DNA of 64,000 nt from Podarcis cretensis (GCA_951804945.1 OX638159.1:25296001-25360000); one strand, 5' to 3'. Shown: positions 22,807-62,437, counted from the stretch's first letter. Numbers and translations: made by a program. Notes: generated by a model from the letters alone, not told the origin.

Positions 22807-23670
22807 TTGCGTGGGCAGGCGGAGTCCCCAGATCCCGAGTGGTCCCCCCCCCCCCGTCATGTGGAATAACGACTCTAGACAATGTGCTATGGGATTAAAT
22901 TGGCCACAACTTTATTAAATTTCAAATGTGGGTAGACCTTGGCTCAGGCATTGGGCGTTCTCCCTCCCCAGTCCCCAGCCGGGGACCTAGGGAGCTACAG
23001 GGTTATCCAGTGTGTGTGGGGGGGGGGATGGGCTGGCTCTGGAGAACATATGTTCAAGCAGAGATAGCCGCCCCCGTTACGCCGCCGCCGCAGGGGAGAG
23101 CAATGACGACCTTTCGGCGTACGGTCAAAGCCTCCCTTCAGAAACCCCTTTAACGGGGAACCCTGGTATCGCCGCCGCAAAGAGGAAGATGGACTAAAGG
23201 ATTCCGCCCAAGGCCTGATACCGCCAAAGTTGTGATGTTTTGCTACGGGAAAGGCGAAACCTGCCAATGCAGGGAAATTCCTTTCCGGCCCTTTAACAGC
23301 GACCTTATCGTAGCAGCGCCCGCATACCTGTGGAGAAAGGTTAACCTGCAAAACCTATGAAGAAAAGTTAACCTGCAAAAGAAGACATTAACTGAGGGTG
23401 GGTAGGGTGGGAGAAGCTCTGGAGCCAAGTGAGGATTCCCAGGTAAGATCCACCCTCTATTGTGTGGGCAGGTAATCCCTCCCCCTACCTGGCCTGGTTT
23501 CCCTGGCAACGCTTCCCCCAGGTGGGATTGGACAACTCACTGGGGTAGGCGGGGATCTCCAGGTATCCCACCTGAGGGAAGGCAAAGCCTATGCTGATGG
23601 GGCCACTCCAGATCCAGGGCTGCACGCGTCCACGCAAAGGGCGCCCCCCGTTTTAAGCGGGGAGCGGTCA
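22807..23670 (-). mobile_element. ~0.85-kb structured interspersed repeat, subfamily II (Ngaro/DIRS solo-repeat-like)
   Basis: Homologous to 47269-48317. AATAAAGTTGTGGCC on the minus strand; terminal TTGCGTGG is inverted to CCACGCAA (23630-23637), which lies next to a hairpin at 23642-23666. The repeat is clear; the superfamily is inferred. Confidence 0.7.
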
Positions 23671-25959
23671 TAGCTCAGTTATGGTCCCTAAAGTAAATAG
23701 GTTCCTTAACTGTTTCTGACATTCCCTATGACAGTGTTCTTCAACTTCGAGTTTCAGTATAGTGTTGGGCAACAACTCTCGTCCCTGACTATTTGCTGAT
23801 ATGGCTGGGTATTGTGGGAATTGAAGTTCCACATCATCTGGTTGGAGAACAACTACCCTTTGGGACCAATCCCTTATATATAAGTATTCTTTGAAGGTTA
23901 TAATAAGTTTTCAAAATGTGGAGGCAACCCGCATTCCCCAGACATTTCATTTCCTTGGCAGACCTTTGATGTAAAATTAAATGGCACTGAAATAAACTAA
24001 TCTTCACTAAACCCACTAATATTTGGACTTAAAGGTAAATAGACCGATGTTCTGATAAATGGTTTTTAGGAAGTTATTAAAAGCTTACTAGATGAGTAGC
24101 CTCCATTTGTGACTGCAACTCAGTTATCTAAATTGTTCTAACTTTGGACCTAAGAATAATGGGATCCTATCAGACAATGTCTGCAGGGTGCTAATTATCT
24201 GCAAGGCCCTCACAGGGAAGTGTTATTTTGTGTATTTTATTATCTCAGAGCCACAGTTTTGTCTCTTGTCTGCAATATCAAGTTTGTTCTCTGAAATGAC
24301 TCTGTTCTCTCTAGTCAATAATATGCACCCAAAAGTTTTTTATAACCATTGTTCAGCTGTTGTTAGCTTTCTGGAAGAAATAACTTTTCTGGCAGTCCCA
24401 TTCAAAATACATTTATAGTGCACTCTAGACATGTTGCCTCATAAGTAAGCCTTATTTAGTTGAATAGAGCTTACACTTTTGTCAATGTGTTTAAGATATT
24501 TGATTGAGTTTATGTATATGCTGCTTTTCCACAACGAGTTGTGCCCAAATTGGCTGACAGAAAACATTCAAAACATAAAAACGCAGAGCCTTGGAAATAC
24601 AAATATACAAAAATACAGAGCATGTCAGTAAATAAATAAATAAAAGTGCTGCAGCTTCCTTCTTCCCTCCCTTTCTTCTTTCTTTTGTTTCTTCCCTTCC
24701 TTCCTCGTTTGCTTGAAGTTGCAGACTAAATTTTATTCTCTTGCATACCCTTCTAAATCAGTAGAAAATTGTCTTGGATTAAGGTTAGTAGTAGTTTTAA
24801 GCATAACCCTTTTAGGGTGATTTAATTATGAGTGATGAGTGAGGATGTAGGTCTGAGCACGCTGGTTTCACCCCGTTGCCATTTCCATTATGTTCCGAAT
24901 CATGGAGGGTCAACGTATTCATGGAGGCTCCTCATGCATTTTAGGTTCCTGAATGCCAAGGTTTTAAAATGTGCAGAGAACCACCATAAATACAGAAGGC
25001 TTCCTACTCCAGATGGTTGAAGGGCGGCAGGAACAGAGATGAGGAGCCACGTGTTTTCTCAGCACTTAATTATAATGCCAAAATATGTAATGCTCAGATA
25101 CAAGTATCCCAAGCAAGAGAACCATAGTTCTGTGCTGGCTAATCTGAAACAACACCAACATGGACCTTGTAAGAAAATTATGAATTGGAGCCCAAGCTAG
25201 AACAGCAGAGAAGTCACTGTTATGGTGCACTGAGATCTATGGTTAGCATGTGCCAGCGTTGGATGGTATGGTGTGGTGAACTCACTTTCAAGGCATCACT
25301 GTTGCTGAAGCTTATTTGGGTGGGACAGGACAGCAGTGATTTGGGGGCTGTTTGAATACACAGACAGAGCTCCACTGGTGCATTCATGCAGCCCCAAACT
25401 CTCCACGCTCCACTATTCAGGAAAGCTGCAGTGACGTTGGTGTCGAGAGGAAGCACTAAGGTACATATCACTCCAGCTATGCCACCCAAAGTGATGAGCA
25501 GATGCAAGATGCCATGAACTTGAAACCTAGGCCCTAATACGCAAGTTCCTCAGCTAACTCTTCTCCCAATGAGGCAGCTTGCCAGAAAAGGAACTCGCAA
25601 CTTGAGTGAACCAAATACGAGGCACCAAAACCGCTGTCTGGTGTCATACATCCACTCTGAATACTACCGATTCAGTAGTCTCACAGGAGGCCCAAGAATC
25701 CACTGCATACCACACTTTGCCCCTAAAGCAGCCATTTTTGCTGTTTAGCTAGAGCAAATTATTACTCTGTTGGGGTAAATTTGCTGCTGGACTGTGCTTC
25801 TTACAGACTACTAACTTAGCTTAGATCCACTCTTTTTGCCTTTTATTTTAACTGTACCTTTGGCTGCCTGGAATCTCTGCAATCTACTACACATCCATGA
25901 TCTCATATGAGCTAGATTTTTTCCCCCATCTATCAGCAGATCCTAAGTTTAGGGATGCA

Positions 25960-26040
25960 CTATTGTATTTTAATATTTTGTTGGAAGCCGTCCAGAGTGG
26001 CTGGGGAGGCTCAGCCAGATGGGAGGGGTATAAATAATAA
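25960..26040 (+). mobile_element. L2 3' tail remnant
   Basis: GGAAGCCGTCCAGAGTGGCTGGGG..CAGCCAGATGGGAGGGGTATAAATAATAA. Confidence 0.8.
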
Positions 26041-26138
26041 TATTTTGTTGTTGTTGTTGTTATGGAGTAGATATATATCTTAGGAGCACATCACTTTAAA
26101 TGTATGGTTAGTTCAAAGAATTCCACACAGCAGCATAA

Positions 26139-26199
<61 letters not shown>

Positions 26200-26205
26200 A
26201 AGAGA
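26139..26205. repeat. Compound microsatellite (TC)n(TG)n(AG)n
   Basis: Read directly from the sequence. Confidence 0.95.
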
Positions 26206-28718
26206 GTTATGAAATGAATACACTGTTAATTTGATTTAGTCTTATCCTCTCTTTTCCAAGTTGTTTCTGTCAAATTTATGATGCTAATTACAGAAGCAGA
26301 GTGAAAATATTACTCAGAAACAACAGCAGCCAATAAAAAATGTAAGAGACGAACTGCCATCTATGGATATAAATATCATTGTCCAGCTTATTTTGGAATT
26401 TCAGTCATTCAATCCAGTTTAGAATTGTGCCTAGTGTTCATCAGCATGTGTGTGTGGAGTGCTGGGTGGAGGGACAGCTCAATTGTGAAATCTGAGAAAC
26501 TTTTCATCTATTTGGGCATGTAGAATAGAAGCATGATAAAGCAAAAGCGTTCTCCTTTTGCTCCTCTGGATTTTTACAAATCCATATCCAGATGTTTCAT
26601 GGGCCATTTTTCACACAACACTCACTCACATGGAACAGTCCTGTGTCTTTAGCTCTGAAATCATGTGGCTACTCCCAGCCCCAGTGTGACCACCCACCCA
26701 CCAACATGGCCTATTTATTCATTTATTTCGACAACTGGTATGCTACTTAATCACAATTGTCTTTCAGCAGTATACAGGAGAACCAATTTTTAAAAAAATG
26801 AGTTAAAATTATAAAGTCAGAATTCAGTTGAAAAGCTCCCTGGAATAATATATATTTTAAAATCAGTAAGGAAGTATATTTCACCTCATCTGGAAGCAAG
26901 TTCCACAAAATTGGCCCCACAATTCTGAACACATGACTCCTTGTGAAGATGAGTCACACATCTAAGCCATGCGCAGGAACACTAACAGTGCTTCCCCCTG
27001 AAGACCTTGGTGATTGAGCAGCAATATAAGAGATCAGGTGGTGTCTGAGATATATTGAACCATTCTGTGAAATGGAATATTTCTGGCAGAGGCAGAAAAA
27101 GAGAATTGTCTCCCTGTAATGGGCAGCTTGCCATCTGTTGAAGAAGAAAACTGAGGGTTCAAATGAGTTCTGTGTTTTGCAGCACAGATGATAATTCTGC
27201 CTTCTCAGGCTCAATTTGCCTTCTGTGGAATGAATGTTTTGCAACTAGTCATACCCACCTTAGCAGTCATTTTGTCAATATACGTGCCCCTCGTGGTTGC
27301 AACTTTCTGATGGCAGCCATACCACTCTCGAACTATGTCCATGGGGCTAAAAAAACTAACACAAAGCTAAGACTTGAAAATAACAGAAATGAAACTGTGG
27401 TGCAAGCAAACATTTCACTCTCATAATGGCAAGGCAAAGGAACAAGTCACAACATGCCAACTATTGCTTTTCCCCTCTTCGTGTGAGTTTATCACATTCT
27501 AATTAGGTCTATTGTCCAATTAAAATCTTTAACTTGATAAGCTTTGCTGCTCTTAGCAAGCCAATATATTGATTAAGTAGTAAACGTTATAGCAACTCAA
27601 TATGGCTTACGCAACAGAATTCCCTGATCTTTTATTGTGTGTTTGTTTTGTTTTAAACCTGATTATAAAAACCAATTGTTAGGTTAATGTTTTCACCATG
27701 AGGTGAATTTTTAATTGTTAGGTTCATGTTGTGCACATTTCTGTTAAACATTCCCTTTTTACCTGATAATAGCTGAAATTTACCACATTCTGATAGCTGA
27801 TACCAGAAATGTATCACAGCTCAAAGCTAAAATTATCCATGTGATATTAAAACTCACTCCAAAATGGGAGCTAGGTAACTGTGCTGTCTTGTCCATATGT
27901 AAAATGAATCTAGAATCAGAAATTACAAATACATGTACATTTGGGATGCTTACTTTGACCGAAGGCTAAATCCCTATGGTGGAGTCTGTGAGTCTGTTCC
28001 CTCCACCATGCTTATAAGCAGAATTCTGGAACTGAACCTGACCACTGGTTGAGATCCTCAATTCCATGCCCACTCCCACAGTTCAGCACTGATAGGAAGG
28101 CAGCACTACCCACTTGTCAATCACCTGACAGCATAACGAAATGGTAAACTACCATCATGTGCACACTTACCTAAGAGAAGTCCAATGGACCCATTGTGAT
28201 TTACCTACAGGAGCAGCTGGCATTTTAGCAACGAAATTGCTGCCACTTACCAGGATAGAGCAGGGTGAGGGAGGCATGGTGTCAGTAATGCTGGCACAGC
28301 ATGGATGCACCAATGGGAGCACTCCACAGGTACAGCCCTGGCCTTGGCACAACCCTGCCCCACCCTAACCTCATGTGTGGCAGTGATGCTGCTGTCAGGA
28401 GGGTAATGTCCTGGCATTGTCCCACTCCACTGGGCAGGGTAGGTCCTCCAGCTTATTCTCAGTAGACGTGAATAGGATTGCACTGTTAAACACAAGAAAG
28501 CATTAAAATGAGCAATGAAAATACAAAACAATATAACTGTAACCAAAAGTTTACTATTTCAATATGTTGCAAACCATTTTGGAAATAATATTAATAATAA
28601 TATTAATAATAATAATAATAATTATAATAATATTTGTAGCTCACCTATCTGACTGTGTTGCCGCAGCTTCCAACAAACACAATAAAACAATGACAAAAAG
28701 TGTAGATATAATTATTTA

Positions 28719-28901
28719 CAGTGTTTTTTTCTGGGGGGATATGCAGGGGTACGTATACCCCTAAACATTTTGTGAAACTTTGTACTTTTGTCCATTTACT
28801 GTATTTATTTTTCCCAAATTGAACTATAAAATGGTGATTTTTCTTGAGTCAAAATGAGAGCACCCCTAAACATTATTATTTTTTTTAGAAAAAAAGCACT
28901 G
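28719..28901. mobile_element. hAT-type MITE
   Basis: TIRs CAGTGTTTTTTTCT / AGAAAAAAAGCACTG. 8-bp TSD ATTATTTA / ATTATTCA. Confidence 0.85.
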
Positions 28902-29711
28902 ATTATTCAAATTAAATAAAATAAGCAACTTTATCACTAGAAGGTATGCTTCTATAGGCTGGCATCTCATTAGCCAGGCTGTGAGTCCATCTTTAGCTTC
29001 TTTTGAACCCTAGCCTGGAACCTAGACTATATGTTCAAGTGCCAGGGATTTAAAGAGTTTTCCAGATTATCAGAAGCAGTGATTCTATGTACCAGTATCT
29101 TTACTAACGGCTAATTCCCAAGTCCATCTGCAATTTCTTCTGCCCCTCTTCCTCTCAATCACTAAAAGGGACTGTCATGAACACCTCCACATAAATCCCT
29201 AAAAGAGTATACTTACTGTGGACTGTAATTATACACTGCTTGGGGAGAAAATCTTGCATAAAAAGCAGAGAACAACAACACCAATGCCAACAATATGTGC
29301 TAATATAATATACTTTCTTTCTTTCTTTTGCAGATTACAGTTACAAGCTGTTCTGAGTACAGATCTTGAATAGAGAACAGCAAGATCCATGGCAACAGGG
29401 TATTCATCCCAGGTAACACCTGATCCAGGCTGCAGAGCTGGAAGGTATAAAAAGACCAGTTGCCCAATCTCCTAGACTACCTACTCATTGATTTTCTGCA
29501 GAGCAAGCCAAATCAGACACACCACGCTATGGTCAAAGAAAAGAACATCAATAAACACAGTGTCCCAGGTCAGAGATGTTGTTCGGGACATATAGCACCA
29601 AATGACACAAGCAAATGAGAATGCCATGTAAAGAAGGGGAAGGGGAACTTCCTTGCTGAATGCATCTGTGGTAAATGGACATTGAACAAAGCAGACCCAT
29701 CATAACAATGT

Positions 29712-30110
29712 AATAAGAGCTTGCTGGAACAGGCCAGTTGTCCACCCAGTCCAACATCTTGTTTTCATAATGACCAACCAGATGCGTACGACTGGTGTGG
29801 TGAACCCTTGACACACACACCCCAGGTGTTGCTGAACTACAACTCCCATCAGCCTCAGGAATCCTTGCCATTGGACAAGGGCGATGGGAGTTGTAGTTTA
29901 GCAACATACGGAGGGTGAAATGTTCCCCACACTTGGCCTATGGGAAGTCCACAAACACAGTCTGAGCAGAACAGCAGTCTCATCTCCTGTGGTTTCCAGA
30001 AATGGGTTTTTAGAAGCACATCACCTCTGACCATGGAAGTAGATGACACTAAAATAAATTGTTTGAGGGTGCACATCCATTTACCCCCTCACCATGTCCT
30101 TTCTCTAGTA
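29712..30110 (-). mobile_element. CR1 3' fragment interrupted by a palindromic MITE (~29790-29932)
   Basis: Similar to 33013-33400. The insert has the inverted core AACTACAACTCCCATC / GATGGGAGTTGTAGTT. Confidence 0.55.
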
Positions 30111-32542: not shown

Positions 32543-32946
32543 TAATAATAATAATAATAATAATTTATTTATACCCTGCCCATCTGGCTGGGTTTCCCCA
32601 GCCACTCTGGGTGGCTTCCGACAGAATATTAAAACCACAATAAAACATCAAACATGAAAAACTTCCCTAAACAGGGCTGCTTTCAGATGTTTATTAAAAG
32701 TCAGATACTTGTTAATTTCCTTGACATCTGATGTGAGGGTGTTCCACAGGGCGGGTGCCACTACCGAGAAGGCCCTCTGCCTGGTTCCCTGTAACCTCAC
32801 TTCTTGCAGGGAGGAAACCGCCAGAAGGCCCTCGGCGCTGGACCTCAGTGTCCGAGCTGAACGATGAGGGTGGAGACGCTCTTTCAGGTATGAGCCGAGG
32901 CCGTTTAGGGCTTTCAAGGTCAGCACCAACACTTTGAAATGTGCTC
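32543..32946 (-). mobile_element. L2 3' fragment
   Basis: Reverse-complement L2 tail with (AAT)n. Translation FKVLVLTLKALNGLG..LKERL...RAFSVVAPALWNTL. Confidence 0.9.
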
Positions 32947-33012
32947 TAGGAATATGGTTTCTACTATATCCCATCACAGCGTATGTTAGTGGGTATGGGA
33001 GTGTGGCTTTAT

Positions 33013-33400: not shown

Positions 33401-33694
33401 GCTGGCTAAGGATTGACAGAGGGACACAGATGGTGCTGTGGGTTAAACCACAGAGCCTAGGACTTGGCGATCAGAAGGTCGGCAGTTCAAATCCCCACGA
33501 TGGGGTGAGCTCCTGTTGCTCGGTCCCTGCTCCTGCCAACCTAGCAGTTCAAAAGCACGTCAAAGTGCAAGTAGATAAATAGGTACCACTCCAGCGGGAA
33601 GGTAAACGGCGTTTCCGTGTGCTGCTCTGGTTCGCCAGAAGCTGCTTAGTCATGCTGGCCACATGACCCGGAAGCTGTATGCTGGCTCCCTCGG

Positions 33695-34292: not shown

Positions 34293-37200
34293 CCCGGCCA
34301 ATAAAGCGAGATGAGCGCCGCAACCCCAGAGTCTGTCACGACTGGACCTAAGGGTTGGGGTCCCTTTACCCTTTACTTTTTAAGGATTGACAGAGGACTT
34401 ATTTACTTCCTTACCAGTCTTGCCTTCCCCTCAGTCCCCAGAGGAGACTTCATAAGTGCAGAACATACCACCTATACAAGAATTTGACAGAGCTCAGTGC
34501 ATGCAGTGCAGCTGTTGTGATTCTGTCCTGTACAGAAGACTTGGCATGAAACAATGGTATTATTTTCCTCCATGGGCTACTAGAGCCTCTTATTTTCTCC
34601 TCGATCACCATTTTGCAATGAGGCCCCCCTCCTCAGCTATCACTCAGTGGCAACAGCTTATAAATATACAGCATGCACCCTTGTGGGAGCCAATGAAAAG
34701 CTAATTAGAATTTTATGAAGAGATGTATTTATTTTAATATTTCATGTGAAATTTCGCTTGCTCTCTTCCCCCCACCACTGGCTCAGTAATAGAAGAAACG
34801 GAACAGAGCAGGTGGAAGAGAACTCCAAACTCCCCACTCTGATGCCATTTCAAGCAGATATTTTACAAACCCTTCAAAGCGCTATGCCATTGTTGATCAT
34901 AGACTTAATTAATGAATCAATAGGACCTCCGAATATTAATCCTTGATTCTGTGCATCTGTACAATTGATTAAAATAATGGATGGAATTGATTGTGGGCTT
35001 GGAGTATATAACTTGAAAATCAAAAGGCTTTATTTGCAAAGGATCAACCTGTGAATGTTGTTATTTTTAAACATAGCTAATTATGCTCATTATTTCAAGT
35101 CCAGGGTTGATGGCAAAAGTGCATGCAACTGTGATGTTTGCTGACATTTTGCATTATCCCCCAGCATTACTATATTTTGGAATTCATTATTAAGGAATTG
35201 AACAGCTTTTCACAGTGTGATTCCCTCCAGATGTTTTGGACTACAACTTCCATCAGTTCCAGCCAGCAATTGGGGACAGCTTGATTGCATTGTAGTACAT
35301 AATTTTTGCATGATTGTATAATGCGAAATCAATGTATTTTTTAAAAAAATATATTAGAATGGAATGAAATATTCATCACAAAATTTATATTTTTTCAGTG
35401 CAATGTATTTAATATTCCAATAATGTAACCAATATAGGAACTATTTTTAAGGCCTGCAAGGGTCATAGACATTTACTTGAAATAATTGTTCTGAAGCCAA
35501 TCCAGGCTTCTCTATTCATTTCAGTGGGACTCAAGCTACTGTTTCAGATCACATTATAAGGCTATCATGTATGTTACCCATCTTCCATACCAAAGATGTT
35601 TGGATTCGCATAATAAATGTTGATAATATCATAGCAATATAAATGCTAATGAGCCATATTTGGAATTATACTATACTTCCTTTAATCTCTACATGTAATA
35701 ATAAATATCAAAAGCACAGGATGAAATTCAATGGCACAGCTGGGCTTTACCTGGTGGGTGACACAAAGCATATTCAAAGGAAAGAATATTCCATTAGTTG
35801 TGCTTATTATATAGAAGATGCATGAGGAACCTCTGATGAGGTATTTTATTTATTTATTTATTGTAGTGGAGATTAAAATTCCCATGTGAGCATCATTGCA
35901 GTGTGACACATATGCTCCTGAGCTGCGAGAAATGGTATCTGAAAACGCAAAGCGAACTGAGGAAGAGAATACTGTAATACAATGTCCATCTTTTGAAAGG
36001 AGGCAAGACTGATCCATAGAATAATATGATACTTGGCTTGCAATATCTGAATAAGTGCAAATCCCAAAATATGGCTATGTTTTGGTTCACATGTTGCTTC
36101 ATAAAGTGTTAATTAGGTAAGTATGCCTTTAAATGTGAGCAGAATCGTATTTGTCCCCCATCCAGCAATGTGTCAGACACCAATTCTCAAGCATAGCACA
36201 TCATGACGGCCATCTTGGTTTCGGTACCCTAACCATGACACAGTCTCCCCAGAGAGGTCCAGTTGCCCCCCCCCCCGATGATTTTAGCTAATTAGTTCAA
36301 ACACTTTTCTTCCTCTGGGTCTCTGACAAGTTTAAAATTCATGCTGGTTAAATGGATTGGTTTTTTGCTCCGCCTGCATGCCTGCTTTTGGAAACCTTTT
36401 GTGTTGTATGTTTTAATATTGTAAGCTGCCTTGAGGCCTTTTTCAGAAACAAAAGGAAGGAATATAAATTATTGTATGACGAAATGAGCACTAACACGCT
36501 ACTGGGGGTAGAGGGATCCAAGAAATATATCTCTTGGATAGTGATCAATCTGTTGGCTGCTGGATGTTCCCTCCCCACTTGGGTGGATAATGAGTTTTAG
36601 TACTGTGAGTCAGGATAATGCACACATTTTTTTCCAGCACATGCCTTACGCGGTTTTGATCAGAGCCACAGAATCTTGCTTTAATTATATTATATCATTT
36701 GTTAGCACATACTGTATATGGGGATGACATCAGCATATATTTTGATGTACTAGAACTTGTTTTGGCATGAAATCAGATGAAATCATACGTATTACTGTTG
36801 TCTCTTTTAAATATGTTGGTGGGGGCAAAAGGCCCATCTCAGATTTCAAGATGGGCATTTTGCCCCCCACCATCACATTTAAAAGAGACAAATTAAAGCT
36901 TATGCCAAACCAAAGGATGCCAGTGGAGTTTATTTCAGCATGTTCATTTACTTACACACATTAGACATCATTAGTATGTTTCATCCATAAGTTATCCTTA
37001 ATTACCTGAAGAATATTCCATTTACTTTTGCAATTTATGGCTTCATAAGAAAATAACTTGTAGAAGAAACATTTCCCTAATTTGCATGGCCTAATTAGGA
37101 GAATATTAATTGCTTATTTTACAATCAGTAATTTGATTTTTGTTTTGGGCATGTGTATACGTAAAGACAAGACACTATTTCCAATTAGTTAAAATGAAAT

Positions 37201-40017: not shown

Positions 40018-40018
<1 letters not shown>

Positions 40019-41058: not shown

Positions 41059-41806
41059 CAGTGCCAGATTTATGTATAAGCTAATCAAGCTATATAGGAC
41101 GCAGGTGGCGCTGTGGGTTAAAGCCTCAGCGCCTAGGACTTGCCGATCGAAAGGTCGGCGGTTCAAATCCCTGCGGCGGGGTGCGCTCCCGCTGCTCGGT
41201 CCCAGCGCCTGCCAACCTAGCAGTTCGAAAGCACCTCCGGGTGCAAGTAGATAAATAGGGACCGCTTACCAGCGGGAAGGTAAACGGCGTTTCCGTGTGC
41301 GGCTCTGGCTCGCCAGAGCAGCGATGTCACGCTGGCCACGTGACCCGGAAGTGTCTCCGGACAGCGCTGGCCCCCGGCCTCTTGAGTGAGATGGGCGCAC
41401 AACCCCAGAGTCTGTCAAGACTGGCCCGTACGGGCAGGGGTACCTTTACCTTTACCTTTAATCAAGCTATAGCTTAGAGCCACACTCTCTTGGGGCCCCC
41501 CACAAAAATTAAAGGAAAAAAAACCACCTGGATGTACATTTCCAAAATCTAAGATAAAAAACAATACAAACCTACATACAGCAACAGTGTTTTGTGTTGT
41601 GTAGGCTCCTATGATGTAAGTAATTGGCCCAGCCTACTTGCCTGCTCCCTAAAATATCACTGGTTAGATACCTATTAGGTCCATAAATTACCATATAGCA
41701 TATATTCAACACAAAAAACAGCGACAATTTGTTGTTGACAAAGGACAGTTGGACAAATAAAGGGCCCCATTACCTTAGGGCCTCATCAAACCTAAATCCA
41801 GCCCTG
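41059..41806. mobile_element. hAT-type MITE (contains a Sauria SINE)
   Basis: TIRs CAGTGCCAGATTTA / TAAATCCAGCCCTG. Exact 8-bp TSD GCTGTGAC at 41051-41058 and 41807-41814. Confidence 0.9.
41097..41458 (+). mobile_element. Sauria SINE, full length, young subfamily
   Basis: Near-identical to 6704-7068. 13-bp TSD TAATCAAGCTATA at 41082-41094 and 41459-41471. Confidence 0.95.
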
Positions 41807-41970: not shown

Positions 41971-42747
41971 AGGACTCTCCTCCCTGAAAGAGAGGGGAGT
42001 GGTTGTGGACGGGAGCCCGAGCACCGCTCCTAGCAGGGGGCATTGCCCCCTGCCTCCAGCTCACCTGGCTGGCACTCACGCGCCCCCCCCCAGTGGCCGT
42101 CCAACCAGGTGCAATGGGGGGGGGCGTGTCCAGCAGCCTTTATGCTGCAGTGCCAGCCTCTCCCCCGGCCTCATTTCTCTTTGTCGTCCTGGGCGAGTCA
42201 CCCACCCTCCACTCCCTTTGAGTTAGGGCTTAGGTCATTGGCCTTGCTATGGACCTTAGGTTGGTCGCCCCGGTTGCCCGGGGGGCCTGGTAGGAGTTTT
42301 TCCATTTGGCATTAGGCTTTTTGGTTTTTTCGCCTACCTCGTAGCAATCGTCACAACTTTTTGGTGGTATTGGTGGGTAGGTTAGGCATTGGAATAATGT
42401 GTTGTGGTGTGTCGAAGTGCTAGGTGTGGCCATCGCCTATGCCTTCAATTTCTAGGGGTATTCCGTTAATGGAATCTGGCGGTCGTGTATTCCGTCCAAA
42501 GCCTGCTTGGCGGGAGGCCATGGCACGACCCTCGGTGACATCAGGGGTGAGCCTATAGTTGGATTAGCATCAACAGGTGATGAACCCCTGGTGAATAAAC
42601 CCACTTGTTTCGCGATCCAATGCCTAAGCCAATACCTTTTCATTGCTGTAATCAATAAAGTTGTGGCCTTTTCTAGCCCATTAACCTTATATCACATGTC
42701 CCCGTGTCTTCATTTTACTTCGCGGGGGTCGGGTCCTCGAACCACAA
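41971..42747 (+). mobile_element. ~0.78-kb structured interspersed repeat, subfamily I (Ngaro/DIRS solo-repeat-like)
   Basis: Homologous to 55078-55843 and 61637-62437. 5' hairpin at 41974-42000; TTGTGG inverted to terminal CCACAA; AATAAAGTTGTGGCC at 42654. Confidence 0.72.
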
Positions 42748-44062: not shown

Positions 44063-44410
44063 GGACACCGGTGGCGCTGTGGGTTAAACCACAGAGCCTA
44101 GGACTTGCCGATCAGAAGGTCAGCGGTTCAAATCCCCGCAACGGGGTGAACTCCCGTTGCTCGGTCCCAGCTCCTGCCCACCTAGCAGTTCGAAAGCATG
44201 TCAAAGTGCAAGTAGATAAATAGGTACCACTCAGGCGGGAAGGTAAACGGCGTTTCTGTGCGCTGCTCTGGTTCGCCAGAAGTGGCTTTGTCGTGCTGGC
44301 CACATGACCCGGAAGCTGTACACCAGCTCCCTCGGCCTATAGAGTGAGATGAGCACACAACCCCAGAGTCGGTCATGACTGGACCTAATGGTCAGGGGTA
44401 CCTTTACCTT
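44063..44410 (+). mobile_element. Sauria SINE, full length, older subfamily
   Basis: GGACACCGGTGGCGCTGTGGGTTAAACC head and GGGGTACCTTTACCTT tail. No clear TSD. Confidence 0.92.
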
Positions 44411-47268: not shown

Positions 47269-48317
47269 TTGCGTGATCAGGTGGCGACTGCCCCAGCCCC
47301 CAGGGACCACCAGAAAGGAATACAGTGGTACCTCGAGTTACATACGCTTCAGGTTACAGACTCCGCTAACCCAGAAATAGTACCTCGGGTTAAGAACTTT
47401 GCTTCAGGATGAGAACAGAAATCATGCGGCGGCAGCAGGAGGCCCCATTAGCTAAAGTGGTACCTCAGGTTAGGAACAGTTTCAGGTTAAGAACGGACCT
47501 CCAGAACGAATTAAGTTCTTAACCCGAGGTACCACTGTAATGACTCTGACAACGTGTTATGTAATTAAAATTTGACCACAACTTTATTAAATTTTCAAAT
47601 GTAGGAAGAGCTTGGCTTAGGCATTGAGCGTGTATCCCTCCCAGCCCTCCAGCCGGGGGAAGTGGGGCTCCTCAGGGTAAATGGGATATGGGGGTGCACT
47701 GTAAGACATATGTATACGCAGGCAGCCCACCCCATATCCCCCCACACAGGGTAGTCCACTGACAACCTTTCAGTGTATGGCCAGTGACACCCATATTACA
47801 ACCCCTTTAAGAGGGGACCCTGGAATAGCCGCTGCGGGGAAGGGGGGTGAGTCACCACTTCATGCCCCCCCCCATTATAAGGAAGAAAAGACTAAAGGAT
47901 TCTGCCCAAGGCCATAAACCACCAAAGTTGTGATGAATTGCTACAGGGAAGATAAACCTGTCAATGCAGGAAAATTTCTTCCTGGTTCTTCAACAGCAAC
48001 CAGTCAAAAGACCGTAGCAGCGCCCACTAAACAGGAAGAAAAAGGTTAACCTGCAAACAAGAAACATTAAACAAAGGGAGGGTTGGGTGGGTGAAGCTCC
48101 TGAGCCAACTGCCTGGCTGCTGCTGGCTCCACCCTCTATTTATGCGACTGGCCCCACCTCCCAGCAGTGCAAATTGACTAACTGAGGCTGGGCGTGAACC
48201 TCCAGAGAATAACACTGAGAGGCAGGCCAGCCCATACAAACTGGTAAGTTCCCTGGGGTCCGAAGCACCGCGCGCGATCCTGCAAAGGGCACCCACAGTA
48301 TAAAGTGTGAGTGCTCA
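47269..48317 (-). mobile_element. Structured interspersed repeat, subfamily II, interrupted by a Tc1/mariner MITE
   Basis: Collinear with 22807-23670 once 47323-47539 is removed. Terminal TTGCGTGATC vs subterminal GATCCTGCAA; hairpin GCACCCACA / TGTGAGTGC; CATAAATAG TATA-like box on the minus strand. Confidence 0.7.
47323..47537. mobile_element. Tc1/mariner (pogo/Tigger-like) MITE
   Basis: TIRs CAGTGGTACCTCGAGTTA / TAACCCGAGGTACCACTG, flanked by TA on both sides. Confidence 0.93.
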
Positions 48318-48865: not shown

Positions 48866-49410
48866 CCATATTTTTCGCCCTATAGGACGCACCGGCCCAT
48901 AGGACACACCTAGATTTTTTTGGGGGGGGGGAATAAAGGGAAAAAATTATTTTCCCCCCCCCGCCAGGTGCGGGGCTGGGGCGGGGGAAGCCCAAGCTTC
49001 CCCCTCCCCCAGCCCCCAGAACGGGACCCAGAGCGATGCCGAAGCTGCGTGCAACTTTGGCATCGCTCTGGAAGCTTGCGGGGCTGGGGGAGGGGGAAGC
49101 CCTCTGCCAGCCTCCAAACCAGGTCGGGAGACAGCGGGATGGCGCGCTGCGCCTCCCCGCTGTTCCCCGAGTTTGCGGGGCTGGCGATGGGGAGCAGCAG
49201 GCTTCTCCCCCCCCCCACCAGCCTTCTAACAAAGTCGGGGGACAGCGAGATGGCGGCGTTCCGCCTCCCCGCTGTCCCCCGAGCTTGTGGCGCTGGCGGT
49301 GGGGCTCTCCAGGCTTCAGCGAAAGCCTGCATTCGTCCCATAGGATGCACACACATTTCCTCTTCATTTTTGGAGAGGAAAAAGTGCGTCCTATAGGGCG
49401 AAAAATACGG
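48866..49410. mobile_element. Tc1/mariner (Tc2-like) MITE with GC-rich interior
   Basis: 27-bp TIRs CCATATTTTTCGCCCTATAGGACGCAC / GTGCGTCCTATAGGGCGAAAAATACGG. TA on the right flank, GA on the left. Confidence 0.9.
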
Positions 49411-53742: not shown

Positions 53743-53815
53743 TCTGGTATAGCTCAGCCAGTAGAACATGAGACTCTTAATCTCAAGGTCTTGGGTTCGA
53801 GCCTCATGTTGGGCA
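53743..53815 (+). pseudogene. tRNA-Lys(CTT)-derived sequence (SINE head or tRNA pseudogene)
   Basis: TAGCTCAGCCAGTAGAACATGAGACTCTTAATCTCAAGGTCTTGGGTTCGAGCCTCATGTTGGGCA closely follows vertebrate tRNA-Lys-CTT. The acceptor stem is broken and there are CpG-type changes. Confidence 0.85.
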
Positions 53816-53818
53816 AAA

Positions 53819-54205: not shown

Positions 54206-54310
54206 ATGAATGTTTTTAGAATGTTGGATTATTTTGATTGTTGTTAGCCGCCCTGAGCCCAGCTTTGGCTGGGGAGGGCGGGATATAAATAAAATTTATT
54301 ATTATTATTA
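54206..54310 (+). mobile_element. LINE (L2-like) 3' tail
   Basis: GTTAGCCGCCCTGAGCCCAGCTTTGGCTGGGGAGGGCGGGATATAAATAAAA followed by (TTA)n. Confidence 0.7.
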
Positions 54311-55077: not shown

Positions 55078-55843
55078 AAGCTTCTCCTCCTTCTGGAGGG
55101 AAGGGGTTGTGAGCGGGAGCCGATTCCTGCATCATACAGGGGGCTCTGCCCCCTGCCCTCCCATCATAGCTGGCGCGCCACGCCTCCCAGTTGGGCACCC
55201 AATCGGGTGCCACCACGGGGGCATGGTCTAGCCGCTCAAATGTTGCGCCAGCTCTCCCCGCCATTGCACCGCAGATTTCCACGAGTCTCTCACCCACCAC
55301 TCCCTTTAGAGCATAGCTTCTTGCTTGACCTTCTATGGACCCATGGTTGGTCGCCCTGGTTGCCCAGGGGGCCTGGTAGGAGGTTTTTCCAATTGGCAAA
55401 TTGGCACGGCCTCTTGGTTTTTTTCACCTACCTCGTAGCAACTTTCTTGGTATCTGGCGGTTAGGCACTGGAATGTGTTGTTGGTGTATGGAAGGGCAAG
55501 GTGTAGCCATCACCTAACCCTTCACTTATGGGTATTCCGTTAAAGGAATCCTGTCCGATGCCCTGTGTTGCGGGGGGCCATGGCACGACCCCCGGTGACA
55601 TCAGGGGAGAGCTTATAGTTGTATTTGCATCAACAGGCTCCCCCTACTGGTGGTTAACCCTTTGTCAGACTCACCCCTCTCCGAGTGGGTGGAGTCAGAT
55701 TTGCTGTTGTTCAATGCCTAAGCCAATACCTTCTCACATGCTGTAATCAATAAAGCTGTGGCCTTTTCTAGCCCATTGACCTTATATACTGTGTCCACAT
55801 GTCTTTATTATTCCCAAGCGGGGGGCGGGTCCTCGAATCACAA
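55078..55843 (+). mobile_element. Structured interspersed repeat, subfamily I
   Basis: Collinear with 41971-42747. Hairpin at 55081-55103; TTGTGA inverted to terminal TCACAA; AATAAAGCTGTGGCC. Confidence 0.72.
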
Positions 55844-57473
55844 AAACAAGCTCCAAAGAGAGGGCTTTGTTCTTTTGAAATGTAATCTGCAAAGCCTTTT
55901 GGAAGTAGCACATCGAAAACCCAACCGATGTAAAAAAAAGTTTTTACACATATTTTGTAATAATAATCGAGTTGCATAGTGATGTCTTTCATGGAGTCCC
56001 TTTACCAGATGCCGTTTTTCCCCTGTCCAAGTAGATACACTGATGACAAAACAGAACTAAGAAACACAGATTATTAACTGCAACTGCAGAAGACAGAGAG
56101 ACGATTTTATTGTTTTAACAGTGACCATCCAATTTGTTACACAGAGCGCAATGCACACGTTACAGGGTAGATGAAACTGGCAAAGCACTTATTTATAGGG
56201 TTTTTTGTTTTTTGTTTTAAAAAGTCATGGACATTTCCTTTTATAAGAAAAGTATCAGGCCATTGTGAATGGTGGAAAATCCATTGCATCGATGACAAGG
56301 GAACAACAGATCTTCGAACACAGCTGCTGCAGCCATATTGCACCTAGCTGTGTACTAAAACTATATTGGCAATATTATAAATCTTCTTAATAATAATCTT
56401 CCCCCAAACTTTACACTCTGCTGTTATCGAAGGAGCATTAAACTAAACACCACAAGATTTACAGCTTGGATAGTTGGCCAATTTCAATAAACTGGTTAGC
56501 TGTTAATAACCAACATTTGAAAAATTACAGCTAAAACAAAAGATCAGTGGTGTCTGTGGCAGATTATAAAGTGAAGGAGTAAATCTATATAAAAGAAATA
56601 AAATCCAAGAAGCTCTATTACAGATAAAAAGAACTAATGACCATCAAACTAAAGACACCTAAGGAAGTTCAGCTGAGTGTGATATGAAAAATGTATCCAA
56701 GTTAGTGAAGCAAGAAGTGTTCTAAGAGGTAATCAATAGGGTTACTTACACTCCATAGAAGAGCAATGGAAAAATATCAATTCCAATGAGGATAACTGTG
56801 CAATTGAGGAAGAATAGTGTCACAGCAGTCAGGAATTATAAATTCATTTGGCAACAATAAGATCCTTTCTACAGATGCATTGCTCAAGGAAAGCAATACA
56901 TTTAGATGATATTAGCCACAATATCCAGTTGTCCCTATTGCCGACTGGTAAACGTGGAGAAAGAAAAGCAATTTTTGCATGCCATCAATTCAATACTATG
57001 CAGAAGCCATTTGTTGCAAGGCTGATTCACACAGTTCAATCATTACAGGAAGGCTGTTTGAAACCACCTGCAGCTGGTCGAGGCTCCATTTTGTCCATAT
57101 CACTTCACCAGATGAATCAGCCCTGTGAAGTGCATCCATTCCAAAGGGAAATAGATTAGCATTATGTGCATTTGTAGTGACAAGTGTAAAGGTACAATTA
57201 AGCTTCTGAGCAAGAAGGCCAATGAGAAGGGTCTTAAAATAATCGGCAATCAAGGCCAGTAGCTCAGCGATATCTTGTGGAAGGGCTGTAACCCAGCATA
57301 ATCTTTTAAAAAAGCAAATTAATTTAATAAATTGTCACACACAAGAAGCACAAATCTGAACAAATAGAATACTAGGTTTGAGAACTTTCATGCATATCAT
57401 TAGCAGATATCTACGAGTGGCAGGCATGGGGAGAGCCTGGAAAATGACAGTAGACTTTAAGAGACAAAACATA

Positions 57474-57985
57474 CCGTATTTTTTCTGTGTATGAGACTAT
57501 ATTTTATCCTTAGAAATAATAGCCAAAAATTGCGGGTTGTCTTATGCACAGAAAGCAGGGGGGGGGGGCGATTGGTGGCAGCAGCCAGCAGGAGATTGGC
57601 AGCGGCGATTGGGCGTGTGTTTGGTTGCTGCGGCAAGGTCTGCTGGCGATTGGCTGTGGTTGCGGCAATTGGGCAGTCGATTTACGGCAGCGGTGAGGCA
57701 TGCGTGCAATTGGCTGTGGTTGCGTCAAGTGGGCAGGTGGGCTTTTGGCTGCAAGCATGCAGGCGATTGGTGGCCGCAGCGATACATGCACTTTGCATTT
57801 GTGGGCAGGCTGTAGAGCAATTGGCGATGGTGACCCCCCCAAAAAAGCTCAACAACTATGTGCAATTCCCCCCCCCCAAAAGTTCAACAACTGTGGTCAA
57901 TTTCCCCATCAAAATCTTTTGTTGCGGTCCCAAAAAATAGGGATTGTCTTATACTTGGGGGAGTGTTATACACATACAAATATGA
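57474..57985. mobile_element. Degenerate Tc2-like MITE with internal minisatellite
   Basis: TA|CCGTATTTTTTCTGTGTATGAGAC left end and TTATACACATACAAATATGA right end, with repeated GGCGATTGG units inside. Confidence 0.65.
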
Positions 57986-57986
57986 T

Positions 57987-57987
57987 G

Positions 57988-58022
<35 letters not shown>

Positions 58023-58205
58023 TTATTACTTATACCCCACCCATCTGGGCAGCTTCCAACAGAACATTAAAAACACAATAAAAAACATTAAACATTGAAA
58101 ACTTCCCTAAACAGGGCTGCCTTCAGATGTCTTCTAAAAGTCAGATAGTTGTTTACTTCCTTGACATCTGGTGGGAGGGTGTTTCACAGGGTGGCCGCCA
58201 CTACC
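57987..58205 (-). mobile_element. L2 3' fragment with (AAT)n
   Basis: Reverse-complement L2 tail with an internal deletion of part of the terminal stem. Confidence 0.85.
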
Positions 58206-58459
58206 TGAGAAGGAGAAATACAATGTTGCATTATGGCAATTTCAGCTTTCCAGACAGAACAATCTACCTTCTCCTAACCTGCATACTGTTCTGGGTGTTC
58301 TCCCACTCCCTGAGCGTGGTGGGGGACACATTCTGTGCCCAGAGAGAAGTGATGCATACATCTTTGTGTGCAATTTTTGCCTAAAACGGCACACACATTT
58401 TTGCAAAGCATTCCCCCCCCCCAAAGCAATGCACTTTTGAATTGTTGTTTTCCTTTATA

Positions 58460-58822
58460 AGGTAAAAGGTAAAGGTACCCCTGCCCGTACGGGCCAGTCT
58501 TGACAGACTCTGGGGTTGTGCGCCCATCTCACTTAAGAGGCCAGGGGCCAGCGCTGTCCGGAGACACTTCCGGGTCACGTGGCCAGCGTGACATCGCTGC
58601 TCTGGCGAGCCAGAGCTGCACACGGAAACGCCGTTTACCTTCCCGCTGGTAAGCGGTCCCTATTTATCTACTTGCACCCGGAGGTGCTTTCGAACTGCTA
58701 GGTTGGCAGGCGCTGGGACCGAGCAGCGGGAGCGCACCCCGCCGCAGGGATTCGAACCGCCGACCTTTCGATCGGCAAGCCCTAGGCGCTGAGGCTTTAA
58801 CCCACAGCGCCACCTGCGTCCC
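58460..58822 (-). mobile_element. Sauria SINE, full length, young subfamily
   Basis: 13-bp TSD GTTTTCCTTTATA at 58447-58459 and 58823-58835. Appears to sit inside an older repeat ending CCCCATCCCTA at ~59038. Confidence 0.95.
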
Positions 58823-59989
58823 GTTTTCCTTTATACATACGCTCAAATGTGCTCTTTGCCCTTACATATGCATTTTTGCACACATTACATGGCTGGAGAA
58901 CCGTACTGTGAAATTCAAAGAAATCTGTATTTCAAAAAAAAATAGCTGTGTTTTGGTTCAAGGACTGATTCAGAACGTGTGAATTTGGTAGGTATGCCTA
59001 TAAATGCAAAAGTGAATTGAGTATTCTCCCCATCCCTAGCTTGGACCTTTCTGATGGTCCCAGCAGACAAGCTGAAGAGACCTGTGAACTTGAGAAAGAT
59101 CATGCAGTCCTGTAACCCCTCTCTCCGTGTAACTGAGGCATTTTATTGCTTCATATCCATTTGATTCCAGTGAGTTTGCAAGCTTCATATGCATGGCTTC
59201 ATAAACACAACAAACGCTTCTTTATATGATGTTTCTGTATGATGCTACAAATCAAAGAGATATATCTAATAGCTATGCTGGTGGCAAGGAGCACATAATT
59301 ATTTCACTCCAAAAGCAGTTTTGTAAGTGATGTTGATTAGAGTTTTAACCAATGTAGAAGCAAATTAAGAACATAGTATTAAAAAGACCAATGGCCTCAT
59401 TAAAATCTATTTTGCCAAGACTGCATGCCCCACAAGTGCAAACAGTAGCAACAATTAGCACTAAACAGCAACAATGAGTCTTGATACAGTTAATTCACAT
59501 GTCAGAGGATAATTTGTAGGATTCAGCATTACCTGTTATTAAATTGGCTGAGGATGCTTTGAAAACAGCTTTCTAGAAGGGCGGAAGATAGCTTAGGAAA
59601 GCAACGTCACACACGTGCTATCATCTATTCTTATTAAGATTCTCCTAAGAAGCAATATGCTTAATCAATTTTACATTGTTTCTGCTTACATGCGGGGATC
59701 TCATTATCTGAATAAGAGCATACATTTTTTAAAACATATATGTATAGTAGAAGTGCTGCAATATAGCATCTGTATATCTAACCTGTTTACTTATCCAGCT
59801 CAAAATCACAGAATTTGTGGAAGGCAACAATGCAGTTAAAACTCAGTAACCTGACAATTAAATAATAATAATCAAACAATGGACATTCCCCACTAATTTT
59901 TGCATCAGATAGAAGCCCAAAAACTGAGACATGAAGCAGGAATCTGTCTTAGCTATGATGATTTTTAGCTGAAGCTTATGTACTGGTTC

Positions 59990-60360
59990 GGACGCAGGTG
60001 GCGCTGTGGGTTAAAGCCTCAGCGCCTAGGGCTTGCCGATCGAAAGGTCGGCGGTTCGAATCCCTGCGGCGGGGTGCGCTCCCGCTGCTCGGTCCCAGCG
60101 CCTGCCAACCTAGCAGTTCGAAAGCACCTCCGGGTGCAAGTAGATAAATAGGGACCGCTTACCAGCGGGAAGGTAAACGGCGTTTCTGTGTGCGGCTCTG
60201 GCTCTGGCTCTGGCTCTGGCCAGAGCAGCGATGTCACGCTGGCCACGTGACCCGGAAGTGTCTGCGGACAGCGCTGGCCCCTGGCCTTTTAAGTGAGATG
60301 GGCGCACAACCCCAGAGTCTGTCAAGACTGGCCCGTATGGGCAGGGGTACCTTTACCTTT
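59990..60360 (+). mobile_element. Sauria SINE, full length, young subfamily
   Basis: 14-bp TSD TTATGTACTGGTTC at 59976-59989 and 60361-60374. Confidence 0.95.
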
Positions 60361-61636
60361 TTATGTACTGGTTCACTGGAGAAACAAAAGTATGTTGTTC
60401 ATTCTAGCATTCTGAGTGGGTGTTTGGCATTTGGAAGGAAACAATGGCATTGAATGGACTTTAGACTTGGTTCTCTGAAACACAGTGCCAGTGATTTGGC
60501 ACTGAAGACAACCAAGTATAGTTGCCAGTTGTCCTTACTGGTGATTATGTTTGAGAGAAAATACACAAATCAATATGCAACATGTAACCAAATGTATATT
60601 TTGAAAGCTTTTAAAAAGTAGCAAACAAATGTGGAAACAGCATGGGACAGAATATTTTTTTTGGGGGGGGGGAGGGGATGTGCAAAAGTGACACAGGGTG
60701 GAAAAGGGCAAATTCATCCATTGCACTGAAATCATTGAGTAGTGATCCTGCTTTAATTTTTGGAATTTGCAGCTATATATGTTTAATCAAAAAAGTTTTG
60801 TTTTTTTAAGTACTGTAATCAGAAGAGGTTGATAAGAAACCTATCTCAAAAAAACTGGAGTGCTGGAGATATGGCCCTTGAAGCAAGTTGCGTTATTTAA
60901 TATGCTTTTCTGTGATGGATTTTGGTCAGCGTTACACCAGTATGCTTGTGCTTTAAATAGGATAATCTGCTTACTGGGCTCACGCATGCAGCTGATCTGG
61001 AATCTTGAAACTGCATTCCTCTGTAATCTAATCAACACAAAATGGTTGCCAATCCCCTGAGCACAAGTTCAGAAAGGACTTTTTAATAATAACAATTTCC
61101 AGCCCTGCGAGAGAAACTTTAAAAATTCCTGGTTTGTATTTTCTTCATAAAAAAGAATAATTGAGGGGGTGTGTGTGTGCAAGGGAGTTCTAATGAGGGA
61201 CAAACGTAGCAGACTGGAATCAGCTGTGGCTCATACAGGTGTTGTGCAGGCTTCTGCAGGCATCTGCCAAACTCTTCTCCTCTGTAGTACTGCCAGTCTT
61301 GTTCTTCTTCTTGCCCAATCGATAAACCATACTGATTTGCTTGGTAATGTACACCTGTGGATCCTAAACATTTTCCCCTCACCCCGTGGACCACATGAAA
61401 ATGACTGAAGGTCTTGGCAGACCATTTAATGATTTTTCTGCCTTTTGTATTAATCATAATTTGCCGTGTAAGATCAGGGGTGAGGAACCACAGCCCACAG
61501 GTTGATATTGGCCCTCAAGGGAATCCAAGCAGGCCCATGAGGCCATTTACCCCAAACCGAACCCACCCACCAGCTGATGTCATTGTCAATGTCTGTTGAT
61601 GGGCAGGGTTTACTCCTGCAATGGTCATGTACCCTG

Positions 61637-62437
61637 TTGTGATTTGAGGACCCGATCCCCGCTTGGGGAATAAAGTCACGTGGACAAAGAATGTAAGGTT
61701 AATGGGTAAGGTAAAGGCCACAACTTTATTGATTACAGCATGTGAGAAGGTATTGGCTTAGGCATTGGACCACAGAACATTAGACTCCACCCACTCGTAG
61801 AGGGGTGAGTCTGAGGAGGGGTTAACCACCAGTAGGGGAAGCCTGTTGATGCTAATCCAACTATAGGCTCTCTTCCTGATGTCACCGAGGGTCGTGCCAT
61901 GGCCTCCCGCCACAAGGGCATCGGACAGGATCCACGACCGCCGGATTCCTTTAGCGGAATACCCAAAATTGTTGGGGAAGGTGATGGCCACACCTTGCCC
62001 CCCGAAACACCAACAACACATTCCAATGCCTAACCGCCAAATACCACAAAAGTTGTGACGGTTGCTACGAGGTAGGCAAAAAAACCCCAAGAGGCTGGGC
62101 CAATTTAGCCAATTGGAAAAAAAAACCTTCTACCAGGCCCCCTGGTTAAACAGGGCGACCAACCAGAGGTCCATAGCAAAGTCTCAGGAACAGCTAATCT
62201 AAAGGGAGTGGAGGGTGGGTGACTCGAAGAAAATGTGTGTGCAATGGTGGGGATGGCTGGTGCGGCTGCGTTTGAGCAGCAAGCCAGGCCCCCGCTGAGC
62301 TTCCCTATTGGGTGCCCAACCGGGGAGGGGCGTGGCGCCAGCCCTGGTGTTGAAGCAGGGGGCAGAGCGCCCCCTGCATGACGCGGGAATCGTCTCCCGC
62401 TCACAACCCCTTCCCTTCCTGAGAGGAGGAAAGGCTT
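61637..62437 (-). mobile_element. Structured interspersed repeat, subfamily I
   Basis: Reverse complement collinear with 55078-55843. TTGTGA at 61637 and TCACAA at 62401, followed by a purine/pyrimidine hairpin. Confidence 0.72.

Follow-up and report, generated by a model that had tools for sequence, protein, structure and literature searches.

The five copies of an approximately 0.8-kb non-coding element that lie in a 64,000-nucleotide stretch of the Podarcis cretensis genome (GCA_951804945.1, OX638159.1:25296001-25360000; the whole stretch is called the window here) are almost certainly solo A-C-B remnants of Ngaro tyrosine-recombinase retrotransposons. In complete elements of this kind, a repeat B is followed directly by a repeat A, and this B|A junction is predicted to fold on its sense strand into a nested stem with the insertion crossover inside it. 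We propose that the folded junction is a single-strand substrate of the recombinase, working like the attC site of integrons, and give this reading a probability of about 0.45. The element class and the solo AB units are already known. A first-pass annotation, made from the window sequence alone, had placed five copies in the window, which sequence and self-comparison bear out, and had preferred a Ngaro origin to Helitron2, which the complete elements of the genome support.

Complete Ngaro elements and their solo remnants

A search of the genome (1.5 Gb in 51 contigs) with the recombinase profile PF00589 gave 19 matches, and of the 15 loci examined, 14 were retroelements and one was bacterial-looking. 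When extended to 10 kb, eight of the 14 elements carry, in this order, repeat A1, ORF1 (gag), reverse transcriptase/RNase H (RT/RH), the tyrosine recombinase (YR) and an SGNH hydrolase, and then B1|A2-C-B2, with the split repeats in direct orientation; the other six lack the repeat pair and end at B. The window copies correspond to A2-C-B2. The A..B-A-B layout around RT/RH, YR and SGNH open reading frames (ORFs) is the one that the first-pass annotation had named as the expectation for Ngaro. Among the nine ORFs scanned with Pfam, RVT_1 was above the cut-off in L046 and L322, and Phage_integrase was above it in L046 and had an E-value of 3e-5 in L322. Lipase_GDSL_2 (the SGNH domain) gave E-values of 5e-7 and 4e-5, both slightly below the cut-off; for ORF1, L046 and L314 gave no match and L322 gave a weak CCCH finger; and RNase H, without a Pfam match, was read from the sequence downstream of RT. 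No methyltransferase (Dam/MT) or Helitron domain was matched in the nine ORFs. The lack of a methyltransferase and, in vertebrate members, an SGNH hydrolase after YR define Ngaro in the available parts of PMC9210276 and PMC3783388. PAT-like and DIRS-like elements are ruled out, because there is no methyltransferase match and the repeats are direct, instead of inverted terminal repeats with an internal complementary region.

The remnants of these elements are abundant. A 15-base motif of repeat B has 9,609 matches in the genome, as against 14 for the control, and single-B remnants number in the thousands. Exact patterns of the copy-1 family (named, like the copy-4 family, after the window copy) are found 323 times for one variant of spacer C, 52 times for the ORF/B1 boundary and 26 times for the junction, and 17 of 30 ORF/B1 loci of this family end at B1.

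Several loci depart from the common layout. L282 (G000:C4:36634500-36644499) has a partial B end followed by two tandem A-C-B units that are 99% alike. L002, L095, L096, L107 and L112 are truncated inside or just before B1 and keep the B|A junction, L095 consisting of only about 130 bp centred on it. In L093, L098, L101, L103, L105 and L113, which are young elements of the copy-1 family, a unit of about 116 bp in the SGNH region is expanded in tandem. The S6 family has near-identical end repeats and dozens of copies; in the two inspected (L308 and L310), similarity to the RT/RH ORF is confined to its last 60-80 residues. The family may be non-autonomous and moved in trans. L310, whose right end is shortened, stands between identical 260-bp copies of host flank (1159-1418 and 8743-9002, reverse strand), possibly through aberrant integration. 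A 428-aa phage-type integrase is encoded at L031 (G000:C29:3261-6731), on a small contig with bacterial-looking neighbours, and is likely an assembly contamination. Outside this genome, a metagenome scan for Ngaro gave four contigs of 1.1-2.4 kb, too short to span the junction, and a viral scan gave one weak, unrelated match only.

Insertion sites and the predicted junction fold

Ngaro copies are inserted at AA. In members of the copy-1 family with exact ends, A stands at flank position -2 in 24 of 25 and at position -1 in 24 of 25, and AA is found at the target of the S6 solos in 10 of 10. Three paralogous empty sites, known from copies inside other repeats, have AA once when empty and at both ends when filled. 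Comparison with orthologous empty sites, as the first-pass annotation had suggested, shows copies 1 and 2 to be exactly absent from contigs of other runs: a contig of run X5 lacks exactly 864 bp at the site where copy 1 is present in X2 and X10 (run X11 had no coverage there), and the 776 bp of copy 2 are missing from contigs of X5, X6 and X10, which have CAA once. Copy 3 is present in X5, X6 and X10. The sense-strand sequence of the empty sites is AA|C, AA|A, AA|T or TA|T, the core being present at both ends when the site is filled, and the targets share only AA(W). The annotation's statement that there is no target-site duplication therefore has to be corrected, since AA (sometimes CAA or AT) of the target occurs once in empty sites and twice around the inserted copies. 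It was right that TG..CA ends are lacking; the ends are AA|WG ... CRCAA with a core of 2-3 bp, and an ordinary solo long terminal repeat, with TG..CA and a duplication of 4-6 bp, is ruled out.

Because the target of copy 1 shares only AT with the junction and that of L080 only AA, the crossover lies at A|A or AA|N, and one copy with G at position -1 (L078) points to AA|N. In no right flank do the first six bases of the element follow (0/30, 0/17 and 0/10 in three sets, 57 flanks altogether), and the targets are thus without a 6-bp overlap homology. Targets of the copy-1 family are slightly biased towards the bases that the element itself has at +1 and +2 (T in 24/42 and G in 17/42, counted by hand), and those of the copy-4 family have no such bias at +2 (G in 2/17).

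A junction pattern matched the genome 340 times. Seventy loci were examined (the first 30, 20 for diversity and 20 more among 100 listed), and held 71 junction matches; with three chance ones (L241, L263 and L274) dropped, 68 true junctions remained. For 16 subfamily representatives of natural B1|A2 junctions, RNAalifold returned, unaided, a 5-bp outer stem, a 2 x 2 internal loop straight after the crossover and an 8-bp inner stem. The predicted fold is thus a nested stem, in which CRCAA pairs with TTGYG in the outer part, a small internal loop follows the AA|N crossover, and the inner stem has a conserved T-G wobble. In 15 of the 16 rows the T-G pair occupies the same column; the exception is the copy-1 row, which the aligner displaced and in which the loop is larger and T-G lies one step further in. 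In an 18-pair structure, made by adding five pairs beyond a mostly unpaired base, 89.6% of the cells pair and both sides change in ten of the 18 pairs. Its covariation score was reached by none of 500 shuffles, and slid registers pair in 42-57%; two of the five measures used, pairs changed on both sides (72/500) and further pair types (241/500), were not above the shuffles. In the R/Y column, left free by the search pattern, the 16 junctions have G-C ten times, A-T five times, G-T once and A-C never. The sense strand folds lower than the antisense strand in 67 of the 68 true junctions and has the better shuffle z-score in nine of ten subfamilies; folded as DNA, eight of the ten reach a z of -3 or better.

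The terminal co-variation that the first-pass annotation had described holds on the 16 natural junctions, and the four hairpins that it quoted, with the motifs complementary to the far end, all read as given. It had treated the hairpin and the "asymmetric inverted termini" as separate features; both are present, but together they make up a single fold, the hairpin as its inner stem and the termini as its outer stem, which needs the B|A junction to form. Its suggestion that they are cis-signals for recombination may hold, being compatible with the position of the crossover inside the predicted fold. Directly before B1, 29 of 30 loci of the copy-1 family have another small, perfect hairpin, in which the CGCAA/TTGCG core of the junction recurs (L046:7640-7665); it is deleted in L139. 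We found no description of a folded Ngaro junction in the literature searched, which does not cover the founding papers, so that an earlier mention is possible.

The spacing within the fold is suggestive. On the folded strand the cut would fall after AA on the 5' arm, with the wobble six or seven pairs further in, and six to seven pairs is the length of a tyrosine-recombinase overlap. The mirror position on the 3' arm reads GAG or GGG, as against CAA at the cut site; the wobble G would thus stand in place of A at the position of a second, staggered cut. Duplex DNA separates the inverted motifs by 28-33 bp, which far exceeds a spacer of 6-8 bp and is too much for a duplex recombinase site.

Use of the junction and competing explanations

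A complete element contains an internal B|A junction identical to the one at which it would be integrated, and integration at the internal junction is expected to give permuted elements (A-C-B|A-ORFs-B). None was found among 89 informative junctions (25 of 26 and 67 of 68 in two sets, three being common to both; the two left out were a fragment and an uninformative junction). Three candidate permuted loci were explained by a flank duplication (L296), a deletion from A to the B end (L255) and a deletion of B2 (L271). That permuted elements are hidden as A-ORF-B forms is rejected for the youngest tier of the S7 family, which has 13 normal elements, one A-ORF-B form (1/14) and no permuted one. 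Because of these two results, the two junctions cannot be equivalent at integration, which would fit a difference in state, for example single versus double strand. Sixteen of 19 distinct internally deleted copies of the copy-1 family in which A is visible break at positions 218-255 of A, and the other three at 96, at 101 and in the leader, with the inner breakpoint scattered; the eight deletion breakpoints inspected have 0-4 bases of overlap, and all eight copies have exact left ends. This suggests that cDNA of variable length is attached, before integration, to a B|A piece that was made beforehand and ends close to the transcription start.

In the mechanism that we propose, reverse transcription would rebuild the left end from the B|A template, as we infer from the breaks at A 218-255, and the new B|A junction would be single-stranded or extruded when it folds. 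The recombinase would recognise the folded junction by its shape, cut it once at AA|N and join it to a short chromosomal AA site. The outer stem (CRCAA/TTGYG) and the inner stem would be two binding arms six to seven pairs apart, and the T-G wobble at the mirror-image cut position would disable the second exchange, so that repair or replication would complete the insertion. The layout, the solo identity, the AA core, the covariation and the lack of permuted elements are observed; the rebuilt left end, the state in which the junction folds, the two binding arms and the role of the wobble are parts of the proposal. The broader claim is put forward tentatively, as possible rather than probable: that Ngaro integration takes an integron-like route on a Cre-type enzyme, the new junction folding as single-stranded DNA and undergoing a one-strand exchange at AA|N with almost any AA, while the identical internal junction is inert as duplex.

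The attC site has R and L boxes of the consensus RYYYAAC/GTTRRRY, which are absent from the Ngaro junction. The integron integrase IntI joins a folded attC to a short double-stranded attG with a single cut in 5'-AAC-3' of the folded bottom strand (10.1101/2022.09.11.507474, as far as available). The likeness is one of working only, and lies in structure prevailing over sequence, one favoured strand, a cut after AA on the 5' arm of a hairpin, a short duplex target and a single cut. The combination of a conserved fold, variable sequence and strand bias, which marks attC-type sites, is found computationally in the Ngaro junctions, two of the ten subfamilies being weak as DNA. The Ngaro enzyme is Cre-like, however, its target is AA|H as against AW|C, and its recognition of folded DNA is putative. 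According to the available part of PMC7192593, DIRS-1 produces single-stranded, mostly linear cDNA, its recombinase had not been studied experimentally for specificity, and the authors could not amplify a circle junction.

The catalytic residues of the Ngaro recombinase are kept across 78 relatives (from lizards, amphibians, molluscs and others), its reading frames are open, and its nearest named relatives are from Podarcis, Lacerta and Zootoca. A structure model had a predicted local distance difference test score (pLDDT) of 94.6.

Several points weigh against the folded-strand reading. The recombinase profile is closest to Cre (E-value 9e-16), with no integron integrase at E<=0.01, and in the fold search all listed rows of ranks 1-30 are Cre and its variants (template modelling score ~0.76), followed by Tn1549 Int at 31 and IntI (2a3v) at 43. 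Cre acts on double-stranded sites. Because the enzyme is Cre-like by profile and by fold, the junction cannot be called an attC or the enzyme an IntI, and the claim is only that they may work alike. The search pattern fixed CRCAAWG and TTGYG, leaving the R/Y column and the inner stem free, and the conservation of the fixed columns is therefore selected by the search itself. The 16 rows are related, and the covariation statistics ignore kinship. The wobble is not universal: by eye, the solos L174, L196 and L205 apparently have G-A and L211 has T-T. Folded as DNA, two of the ten subfamilies (L261 and L240) are no better than shuffles, and the best DNA fold of L240 is a different one, whereas as RNA the nested stem forms in all ten and the z-score is stronger than that of DNA in eight. 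First-strand cDNA would be antisense, the weaker-folding strand. All of the structural evidence comes from one genome.

The preference for RNA leads to the best-placed alternative, in which the identity of the elements is the same and the fold acts in the sense RNA, masking the downstream G/U-rich signals of B1 and forcing read-through to B2, or acting in packaging or strand transfer. The same AAUAAA occurs in B1 and in B2, of which only B1 precedes A2, and the layout would need read-through at B1; G-U wobbles and a sense-strand bias are typical of RNA, the z-scores and the ten nested stems above also speak for it, and the outer pairing extends to the G-run at the end of B. A signal in RNA, however, leaves unexplained a crossover exactly at the boundary of stem and internal loop, the constant distance of six to seven pairs from cut to wobble and the targets limited to AA(W), and the pairing involves only the last 25-30 nt of B, 70-100 nt beyond AAUAAA. 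We rank it below the folded-DNA reading but regard it as a strong competitor, and the two can both hold.

A second alternative concerns the solos and is compatible with the folded-strand reading: they may have integrated in their own right as 0.8-kb mini-circles, which either a short-cut in reverse transcription or excision of A1-ORFs-B1 by the recombinase would produce. Some near-identical copies are already solo (in S6, 10 of 40 at 99.9-100%; in the copy-1 family, 34 of 40 at 99-100%), there are about ten times as many solos as A-ORF-B forms, even though B1 and B2 exceed A1 and A2 in length and lie closer together, and the tandem B|ACB|ACB element L282 would fit such circles. In the S7 family, on the other hand, solos make up 0 of 13 copies at >=99% identity, 2 of 8 at 98% and 19 of 19 at <=95%, and A-ORF-B forms rise from 1 of 14 at >=99% to 17 of 19 at <=94%. 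This parallel rise as identity falls fits loss after insertion, with the reservation that identity to one query mixes age with subfamily distance. Most solos likely arose after insertion by recombination between A1 and A2, and mini-circles, an unlikely origin overall, were not adopted for most of them, the S7 tiers being against and the S6 and copy-1 families leaving room.

It is still less likely that the recombinase uses a double-stranded circle without overlap homology, like the integrases of Tn916 and Tn1549, the inverted motifs being arms read by sequence or a cruciform without a strand-specific role. The Cre-like enzyme with Tn1549 Int as the next fold match agrees with this, as does the slight bias of targets towards the +1 and +2 bases of the element, and the classical model has a double-stranded circle with a trinucleotide core (available part of PMC7192593). 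Against it stand the distance between the arms in duplex DNA, the inner stem, whose sequence varies while its pairing stays, the 0/89 permuted elements, where a symmetric circle would have two equal junctions, and the product of second-strand exchange, found in none of the 57 right flanks. Helitron2/Helentron elements insert between T and T without duplication. A non-autonomous element of that class, read in the opposite direction (terminal repeat, subterminal repeat and 3' hairpin), superficially resembles the end anatomy of the antisense strand, but it is refuted, and left with a negligible chance, by the gene content of the long elements with these ends, which encode RT/RH, YR and SGNH in the A..B-A-B layout, and by insertions that duplicate an AA core at empty sites that are not T|T; no Rep/helicase was found in the long elements inspected, and no genome-wide Helitron search was made.

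Window features and related systems

In the window self-comparison, copies 1 and 3 are alike at 67% and copies 2, 4 and 5 at 71-80% (Table 1). The two subfamilies of the first-pass annotation thus stand as similarity groups within the window, but genome-wide the five copies fall into at least four subfamilies, and the boundaries of copies 2, 4 and 5 are moved by one base. AATAAA lies about 90-110 bp before the 3' end, and a TATA-like box, CATAAATAGA, is present in copy 3, both as annotated. Copy 2 is 89% identical to the ends of L322. Copies 3, 4 and 5 are of older subfamilies, their nearest full elements being 67-82% alike (71-82% for copies 4 and 5). The other 39 top copies related to copy 3 are at 83-92% and none has B1 upstream; no full-length partner of this subfamily was found, and a junction-pattern search for it gave 0 matches, as against 2 in the genome for copy 4. 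The length of copy 3, 1049 bp, is explained by a nested miniature inverted-repeat transposable element (MITE) of 215 bp flanked by TA. This MITE is very abundant, and other Ngaro copies sit in (L080) or beside members of the same family.

Table 1. Ngaro copies and other features of the window (positions counted from its first nucleotide)
Feature	Position	Strand	Size and evidence
Copy 1, solo A-C-B unit	22807..23670	-	864 bp; over its whole length (864/864) 96.3% identical to A2-C-B2 of the full element L046
Copy 1, repeat A (5' hairpin, TTGCG partner motif, promoter-like part)	23410..23670	-	Copy positions 1-261; corresponds to A1 of L046 at 96.9%
Copy 1, unique spacer C, starting with the CCCACCC motif	23227..23409	-	One per full element, located between A2 and B2
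Copy 1, repeat B (AATAAA at 22911-22916, terminal CCACGCAA)	22807..23226	-	Copy positions 445-864; corresponds to B1 of L046 at 95.2%
Copy 1, inner hairpin with T-G wobble	23642..23666	-	Read from sequence; same stem predicted in natural junctions
Copy 1, TTGCGTGG, pairing with 3' terminal CCACGCAA (22807-22814) as outer stem of the predicted junction fold	23630..23637	-	Read from sequence
Copy 2, solo A-C-B unit	41972..42747	+	776 bp; 98.2% identical to the A-C-B ends of L282, an element with gag, RT, YR and SGNH
Copy 2, parts	hairpin 41974-42000; TTGTGG 42003-42008; AATAAA 42654-42659; end CCACAA	+	
Copy 3, solo unit, old subfamily	47269..48317	-	About 832 bp plus nested MITE; 67-72% to L046 ends
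MITE at TA inside repeat B of copy 3, foreign to the Ngaro unit	47323..47537	.	215 bp; TA on both sides; sister copies read through TA without it
Copy 4, solo unit	55079..55843	+	765 bp; top copies 80-89% with sharp common ends; repeat B 79% to B1 of the RT/YR/SGNH element L320
Copy 5, solo unit, copy 4 group	61637..62436	-	800 bp; 80% identical to copy 4 in 810 columns; repeat B is 82% identical to B1 of L320
Short interspersed element (SINE)-like repeat	6697-7073; 41097-41459; 58464-58822; 59984-60362		About 360 bp; four copies 94-98% alike
SINE-like repeat, older copies	21963-22308; 33421-33694; 44063-44410		
Long interspersed element (LINE)-like 3'-end fragments	643-984; 12504-12901; 17396-17821; 32543-32946; 57982-58213		
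Reading frame, presumably resembling the end of LINE ORF2	12811-13287	-	
Imperfect palindrome	36798-36891		95 bp
G+C-rich stretch with nested inverted and tandem repeats	48996-49317		

The layout found here is that of other Ngaro elements (order DIRS): Xenopus DIRS-53_XT (PMC9210276) and the Ngaros of Cafeteria (PMC8547959) have, in the available parts of these sources, the same A1-ORFs-B1-A2-B2 split direct repeats with gag, RT/RH, YR and SGNH, and Cafeteria has isolated AB units like those of the window (PMC8547959). The lizard elements differ in the unique spacer C between A2 and B2, in the thousands of single-B remnants and in the covarying B|A fold around AA|N, of which there is no mention in the available parts of either account. 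SIRE of Trypanosoma cruzi, which is the A2-unique-B2 part of VIPER, is likewise a short non-coding unit composed of A, an internal piece exclusive to it and B, and whether it has a mobility of its own or is a remnant is left open for it, as for the lizard solos. However, SIRE is about half as long, VIPER belongs to a separate kinetoplastid clade of YR elements, and the available part of the account (PMC6681497, for all of these points) mentions no junction fold. Among recombinases of solved structure, Cre is the nearest relative of the Ngaro enzyme, and the spacing of six to seven pairs in the folded junction fits the overlap of tyrosine recombinases; the Cre site loxP, however, is a duplex for which matching spacers are required, whereas Ngaro targets share only 2-3 bases with the junction.

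These results identify a repeat class in a lacertid genome, account for remnants that mimic the ends of Helitron2, and address the question of how tyrosine-recombinase retrotransposons insert without a homologous target. The family offers a candidate substrate some 70 nt long with a mapped crossover, compensatory variants that occur naturally in many subfamilies, and open YR frames with conserved catalytic residues, so that the integration question is open to a simple enzyme assay. If the folded-strand reading is true, attC-style chemistry would extend to eukaryotes, and Ngaro would provide a eukaryotic tyrosine recombinase that acts on a folded single strand, a small enzyme with a 70-nt donor site and a minimal target of two bases.

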